Assembly (NCBI RefSeq): GCF_046105845.1
Contig: NZ_CP151004.1
Direction: 5' to 3' (one strand)
From: Escherichia coli
GTDB taxonomy: Bacteria; Pseudomonadota; Gammaproteobacteria; Enterobacterales; Enterobacteriaceae
Length of the DNA: 64,000 nt
Shown piece after piece: positions 2,739-2,954 of this stretch (within the stretch, counting starts at the first letter, position 1; each line of letters begins with the position of its first letter). Position numbers and translations under genes: made by a program. The notes beneath the pieces were generated by a model. That model was not told where the DNA came from, ran no database searches, and was given only the letters and a program-made list of their open reading frames with translations.

Positions 2739-2954
2739 ATGGAACTGCATTGTCCACAATGTCAGCATGTGCTTGATCAGGATAACGGCCATGCGCGTTG
2801 CCCATCCTGCGGGGAATTTATTGAAATGAAAGCTCTTTGTCCAGACTGCTATCAACCGTTGCAGGTGTTAAAAGCCTGCGGTGCAGTAGATTACTTCTGT
2901 CAGCACGGGCATGGCTTGATATCGAAAAAACGCGTTGAATTCGTGCTGGCTTAA
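2739..2954 (+). CDS. yfgJ: Small zinc-ribbon protein YfgJ (71 aa, CxxC pairs)
   Basis: [13 protein letters not shown]...; 4 CxxC/CPxC motifs; K-12 synteny. Confidence 0.85.

Follow-up and report, generated by a model that had tools for sequence, protein, structure and literature searches.

Do the interlocked stop codons of two convergent genes form a regulatory device, or are they a neutral by-product of how closely the genes are packed? This question is raised by yfgJ and xseA in a 64,000-nt stretch of the Escherichia coli contig NZ_CP151004.1 (assembly GCF_046105845.1), hereafter the window, for which a first-pass annotation had claimed that the two stop codons overlap, such that the two transcripts necessarily overlap at their 3' ends, with possible antisense interference. 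Reading the junction directly (CTG GCT TAA TGA ACC, 2946-2960) and in both open reading frames, we found the claimed positions to be exact: the yfgJ stop occupies 2952-2954 and the xseA stop the complement of 2951-2953, with 2 nt (2952-2953) common to both, and the xseA frame on the minus strand ends in K K V H followed by its TAA. Since the two coding sequences share the tetramer TTAA, full-length mRNAs of the two genes must indeed overlap, and data from K-12 extend this overlap far beyond 4 nt, as described below. The coordinates of the features discussed here are collected in Table 1.

Table 1. Features of the der-yfgJ-xseA region (window coordinates)
Feature	Position	Strand	Description and basis
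der CDS	1197..2669	+	Precedes yfgJ in the same orientation; 3' end overlapped by the Rho region of the xseA transcript; ORF list, RefSeq K-12 orthologue, coordinate map
xseA 3' extension	2633..2950	-	Covers in antisense all of yfgJ, the spacer before it and the final ~36 nt of der; runs to the Rho region
Perfect 13-bp inverted repeat	2691..2722	.	In the der-yfgJ spacer; crossed by the xseA read-through transcript
yfgJ CDS	2739..2954	+	ATG 2739, 71 aa, stop TAA 2952-2954; ORF list, Pfam, PDB, RefSeq position in K-12 and other E. coli
xseA CDS	2951..4321	-	456 aa, start 4321, stop TAA (complement of 2951-2953); ORF list, Pfam, PDB, RefSeq
Shared tetramer TTAA	2951..2954	.	4-nt CDS overlap; the two stops are read in part from each other's complement
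Tandem stop TGA	2955..2957	+	In the yfgJ frame, directly after TAA; frame scan
yfgJ/der-strand 3' extension	2955..3043	+	Antisense to the last ~30 xseA codons, to the Rho region; U-rich, C>G
Promoter-like site upstream of xseA	4336..4363	-	TCGACT, 16-nt spacer, TAGAAT; consensus scan only, 9/12 matches

The overlap is not particular to this strain. The RefSeq annotation of K-12 MG1655 carries the same 4-nt overlap (xseA 2634232..2635602 +, yfgJ 2635599..2635814 -), as do other E. coli RefSeq genomes, and in the corresponding K-12 region yfgJ/xseA is the sole overlapping convergent pair listed, the other five being separated by gaps of 37-137 nt. The window is colinear with K-12 without indels over 6.5 kb and 97.2% identical to it overall, with an identical der-yfgJ spacer, 98.6% identity in yfgJ and 94.7% in xseA. 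In the complete-genome collection, from which we took the distribution within E. coli, the contiguous yfgJ/xseA junction is present in 3667 of the 5426 genomes, at 95-99.6% identity.

Both proteins are readily assigned to their families. YfgJ matches the Pfam profile PF07191 (Zn_ribbon_6) at 97.7 bits against a curated cut-off of 25 (E 4e-28) and the PDB entries 2JNE and 2JRP, and is a double zinc-ribbon protein with two CxxC...CxxC motifs whose cysteines are invariant in an alignment of 22 homologues; profile score and motifs together place it in PF07191. XseA, the large subunit of exodeoxyribonuclease VII, matches PF13742 (120.5 bits) and PF02601 (387.8 bits), and thus has both the N-terminal OB fold and the Exonuc_VII_L domain of that subunit; it aligns end to end with PDB 8TXR, over residues 1-456. 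These assignments bear on the possibility that one of the two frames has been wrongly extended and that no true overlap exists. Consistent with such an artefact, the carboxy-terminal residues of both proteins are poorly conserved, and the Lys-rich tail of XseA beyond the Pfam domain (residues ~441-456, ...VKKSRKKVH) differs between genera in both sequence and length. Against it, neither frame contains an earlier in-frame stop, the chains in the solved structures comprise 456 residues for XseA and extend to residue 71 for YfgJ, YfgJ protein has been quantified in proteomics, and the junction recurs in thousands of E. coli genomes; moreover, the position of a stop, unlike that of a start, is not an annotation choice. 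The frame scans and the solved structures exclude this explanation, to which we assign practically no weight.

The type of overlap is likewise well described. [quoted passage not shown] The yfgJ/xseA pair consists of tail-to-tail coding genes that overlap by exactly 4 nt on one of these tetramers (TTAA), with TAA as both stops, and shows no substantial difference from that class. The logic of the arrangement is that, wherever a gene ends in a pyrimidine followed by TAA or TAG, the complementary strand carries a stop one base away, beyond which a convergent frame in that phase cannot extend.

A junction with zero spacer leaves no room between the genes for a terminator, and we found none. A terminator scan detected no intrinsic terminator near 2951, its only find being the bamB-der terminator at 1100-1129, and the gene boundary showed no stem-loop between an A-run and a U-run with discrete 3' ends, as a bidirectional intrinsic terminator would. 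RNA folds across the stops, computed in four windows, were no better than those of shuffled sequences (-12.2 kcal/mol, z -0.7; -6.5 kcal/mol, z 0.0), and positions 2300-4600 gave no Rfam match even at E <= 1. In K-12 Term-seq data, no 3' end is listed at the yfgJ/xseA junction, whereas the bamB-der terminator was detected. An intrinsic or bidirectional terminator at the junction is accordingly rejected for this sequence, given the empty scan and folds at shuffle level.

The Term-seq data also touch on two neighbouring sites. The bamB-der terminator (window 1100-1139, plus strand) is strong, with a 13-bp stem, GAAAACGGCTCCTGGACAGGGGCCGTTTTC, followed by CTGTTTTT, and coincides with the abundant 3' end 2637422 (window 1131), from which it follows that much of the bamB transcript ends before der. 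At the other end of the region, 3' ends 2634252 and 2634289 (window ~4301 and ~4264, minus strand) lie 20 and 57 nt inside the xseA frame and may reflect premature termination or processing. Upstream of that frame, promoter-like sites were no more numerous in the region than in shuffled sequences, such that the site in Table 1 is a candidate only.

How, then, do the two transcripts end? The 3'-end mapping by which the overlap could be judged proved to be largely available for K-12, and in that strain both transcripts run past their stops into the antisense of the neighbour. Adams et al. (2021; PMC7815308, Suppl. file 2) applied DirectRNA-seq with and without bicyclomycin to K-12 and reported a Rho termination region on each strand of this locus. 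On the yfgJ strand, region 2635510(-), labelled 'antisense xseA', has a Rho score of 3.80 (p 2.3e-6), with coverage falling from 110 to 17 in untreated cells and from 126 to 74 with bicyclomycin. On the xseA strand, region 2635920(+), labelled 'antisense der', has a Rho score of 11.25 (p 2.6e-45), with coverage falling from 259 to 26 in untreated cells and going from 472 to 533 with bicyclomycin (PMC7815308). Mapped through K-12 coordinates, the first region falls at window ~3043, 89 nt past the yfgJ stop and inside xseA antisense, and the second at window ~2633, 318 nt past the xseA stop and beyond all of yfgJ; these positions derive from 800-nt windows in K-12 and are approximate for this strain. 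Together they imply a mutual transcript overlap of roughly 410 nt.

The sequence past both stops has the composition expected for Rho loading, albeit to a modest degree. Downstream of the yfgJ stop, C exceeds G over 2955-3079 (10-15 versus 7-10 per 50 nt), and downstream of the xseA stop it does so over most of 2950-2725 (11-15 versus 7-12). A hairpin of 9-10 bp at 2981-3017 lies within the yfgJ-strand extension. Thus both features of Rho-dependent terminators are found here, namely increased read-through with bicyclomycin, in the K-12 literature, and untranslated RNA, rich in C and poor in G, ahead of the regions where termination occurs. The locus resembles the Rho-terminated antisense read-through of PMC7815308 in having bicyclomycin-sensitive regions on both strands with C>G; it differs in that each 3' UTR lies wholly within the neighbour and the Rho loading zone is located entirely inside the other coding sequence. 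Elsewhere in the same chromosomal region, the convergent genes yfgD and hda (the K-12 match to window ~20600-21000), which lie 137 nt apart, have reciprocal Rho regions at 2617709(-) and 2618272(+), each annotated as antisense to the partner gene, indicating that the pattern seen at yfgJ/xseA is a common one.

These data also weigh on a further explanation, in which the junction would hide a bidirectional terminator or collision site, formed by the A- and U-runs of the Lys codons (SKKRVEF in YfgJ, KKSRKKVH in XseA) and a weak stem across the stops, such that both transcripts would end near their stop codons. The plus strand can form A6-CGCG...CGCG-A-U7 across 2924-2978, and relatives carry structures of this kind as well: Citrobacter-type junctions have the palindrome GCCGGTTTAAACCGGC followed by the T-run TTTTTCTT, making a small hairpin with TTAA as its loop, and one relative (locus L070) has a clean bidirectional terminator inside a 33-nt yfgJ/xseA gap. 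Termination by head-on collision together with a stem-loop has moreover been described between convergent genes (Wang et al. 2022; 10.1101/2022.10.23.513370), and yfgJ/xseA resembles the systems of that study in being a convergent pair whose transcripts meet head-on. However, it lacks their stable, A/U-flanked stem-loop, and its Rho-sensitive termination is displaced from the gene boundary; the bicyclomycin-sensitive read-through of 89 and 318 nt, together with the empty junction scan, the shuffle-level folds and the absence of a listed K-12 Term-seq 3' end at the junction, makes a hidden terminator very improbable.

One stable structure does lie within the overlap, in the der-yfgJ spacer. The inverted repeat at 2691-2722 lies 22 nt downstream of the der stop and 16 nt upstream of the yfgJ start, has no U-run on either strand, and is predicted to fold at -25.0 kcal/mol on the plus strand (z -4.7) and at -23.9 kcal/mol on the minus strand (z -6.4). 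It has no Rfam match, and no K-12 Term-seq 3' end is listed there. A longer yfgJ reading frame, from ATG 2703, begins within this hairpin and is not the annotated start. The hairpin occurs in 3628 of the 5426 E. coli genomes, close to the 3667 with a contiguous yfgJ/xseA junction, and an origin as a repeat element was rejected, the sequence being basically single copy per genome. Genomes with a tandem duplication of ~242 bp have it twice; in these (E. coli Z0117EC0116 and similar strains; locus L002, 1839-2297), a partial yfgJ pseudogene (residues 1-41) lies upstream of the intact gene. In most other genera this position is occupied by a non-homologous hairpin of equal stability; in some of them a U-run comes after it, as in a terminator for der.

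Published data thus establish for K-12 that the transcripts overlap and that termination is Rho-sensitive on both strands. Do they amount to regulation? ExcludonFinder (PMC12288877) lists xseA-yfgJ among 165 convergent excludons of E. coli MG1655, on the criterion that transcripts overlap in no fewer than half of the 58 RNA-seq sets, and by the data for the colinear K-12 locus the pair does have the transcript overlap that defines a convergent excludon. If this excludon were functional, the ~410 nt of mutual antisense would allow xseA and der/yfgJ to repress one another, by polymerase collision or through cutting of the RNA duplex by RNase III, and the amounts of YfgJ and of the exonuclease VII large subunit would be coupled. 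Several observations agree with this possibility beyond the documented overlap itself: both RNAs coexist, with similar, modest coverage ahead of the sites of termination (259 and 110 reads per 800 nt); some dsRNA was captured at yfgJ in the p19 study (7.0 and 6.4 RPM); and tight packing of the junction is kept across genera. However, the catalogue listing is based on coverage alone, and the captured yfgJ dsRNA is far under the cluster threshold of about 23 RPM per 200 bp. The p19 data do include an xseA duplex, the one among the matches listed, but it lies ~170 nt from the xseA start, outside the overlap.

Mutually exclusive expression is the defining trait of excludons, and proteomics of RNase III mutants does not support it for yfgJ/xseA. 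In the two sheets of the rnc-mutant dataset (the first headed rnc-14 exponential phase), YfgJ stood at 0.59x and 0.82x of wild type, a decrease that is the opposite of de-repression and not consistently significant. The RNase III and p19 datasets constitute weak negative evidence, and other considerations point the same way: YfgJ and exonuclease VII have no known functional link, and other genes lie between yfgJ and xseA in about one third of E. coli and in Salmonella-like and Enterobacter-like genomes. Taken together, a functional excludon appears unlikely, and the overlap probably has no regulatory role; the first-pass annotation was right to call antisense interference no more than possible.

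For a comparison between species, we examined one genome per species, yielding 80 yfgJ loci that fall into three contexts; these loci include no E. coli K-12-type yfgJ allele, their Escherichia members being either a sinH-linked allele or a copy beside an AlpA-like gene. In 32 species yfgJ directly faces xseA. The 4-nt overlap (TTAA) occurs in 8 of them, one has abutting genes, 14 have a gap of 1-6 nt and 8 a gap of 13-126 nt, such that the genes come within 6 nt of each other in 23/32; Shimwellia, described below, is the remaining case. On these sequences, the exact yfgJ/xseA overlap is not conserved between genera, and it appears stable once it has formed.

The second context places an emfourin (PF20242) and protealysin (M4 peptidase, PLN propeptide) gene pair between yfgJ and xseA (e.g. 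locus L009, 2719-4088), and is found in Enterobacter, Leclercia, Lelliottia, Kosakonia, Trabulsiella and others (loci within L008-L083); the der-yfgJ interval there often holds a POT-family transporter gene. Here the convergent partner of yfgJ is emfourin, and a 4-nt stop-stop overlap is present in 29/31 species, on TTAA (23), CTAA (4) or CTAG (2), all three of which keep both stops. The one mildly curious aspect of the comparison is that yfgJ ends in interlocked stops with either of two convergent partners. In the third context, yfgJ is followed by a sinH-like gene on the same strand. Two loci, from E. coli E69 (L012) and E. albertii (L060), have yfgJ-family and sinH-like genes beside an AlpA-like regulator gene rather than der, suggesting a mobile or rearranged copy of the module; in E69 the sinH-like gene is interrupted by an IS1-like element.

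One directly facing pair has no interlocked stop. In Shimwellia pseudoproteus (L026, around 2583-2725), yfgJ is closed by TGA, whose complement offers xseA no stop, and the xseA frame continues 143 nt into yfgJ antisense. Either the stop was lost and the C-terminus of XseA is genuinely longer, or the sequence contains an error.

The locus also varies within E. coli. Of the 1759 complete genomes without the contiguous junction, at least some have a yfgJ allele of only ~65% protein identity, after which comes an island made up of sinH, sinI and a gene for a large adhesin. In strain M160133 the island measures 11.7 kb, and a gap of 53 nt lies between xseA and the adhesin gene that it faces. A megablast search with the alternative yfgJ allele recovered 283 genomes only, because the allele is heterogeneous. 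We estimate that the sinH island separates yfgJ and xseA in about one third of E. coli, its presence being confirmed in at least some of them. Since the island parts the two genes in many E. coli, their overlap is dispensable within the species.

The xseA allele of the window is itself unusually divergent, at 94.7% identity to K-12 compared with 98-99% for bamB, der and yfgJ. Its best match among the 5426 E. coli genomes is 97.4% identical; identity to the window allele is 80-90% in 676 genomes, 90-95% in 2528 and 95-99% in 2221. This divergence, judged from sequence comparison, suggests recombination beside the variable island site.

The comparison cuts both ways. Speaking for neutrality are the lability of the junction across the 32 species, the xseA frame that runs into yfgJ in Shimwellia, the sinH island in E. 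coli and the failure of YfgJ to rise in the RNase III mutant. Against it, tight packing is widespread and the emfourin overlap almost constant, which could point to selection for a zero spacer. One might accordingly propose that interlocked, zero-spacer stops at the yfgJ 3' end are selected rather than just tolerated, with yfgJ depending on its convergent neighbour for termination or antisense control; the basis for this would be the 8/32 species with xseA as partner, to which the E. coli type of the window, outside those 32 loci, can be added, and the 29/31 with emfourin. We regard such selection as distinctly unlikely.

Combining these results, we consider it likely that yfgJ/xseA is an ordinary, neutral tail-to-tail overlap with interlocked stop codons, whose transcripts are terminated by Rho on both strands. 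The overlap would most likely have originated by loss of spacer DNA and drift of the poorly constrained C-terminal tails, and it would persist because loss of either stop would lengthen a protein. Each transcript would continue, untranslated, into the antisense of its neighbour, with Rho stopping the yfgJ strand ~90 nt into xseA and the xseA strand ~320 nt downstream of its stop, once it has crossed the whole of yfgJ; Rho would thereby take over the job of an intergenic terminator. All transcript data in this model come from K-12, to which the xseA of this strain is only 94.7% identical. Neutral origin and lack of a regulatory role are what we infer from the combined evidence, and the overlap is probably not a regulatory device.

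The overlap, the transcript overlap and the type of overlap are already annotated, catalogued and assigned to a well-described, textbook class, with Rho termination mapped in K-12, and the overall significance of the locus is therefore small. Its practical consequence is that a deletion or tag placed at the 3' end of one gene also changes the stop region and the antisense RNA of the other, which is relevant to the design of xseA and yfgJ mutants. If the selection proposal were true, the xseA 3' extension would serve as an inherent antisense regulator, through which a DNA-repair nuclease would be connected with the der/yfgJ transcription unit. The natural separation of the two genes by the sinH island in about a third of E. 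coli means that existing expression data from such strains could cheaply reveal any effect that the overlap may have.
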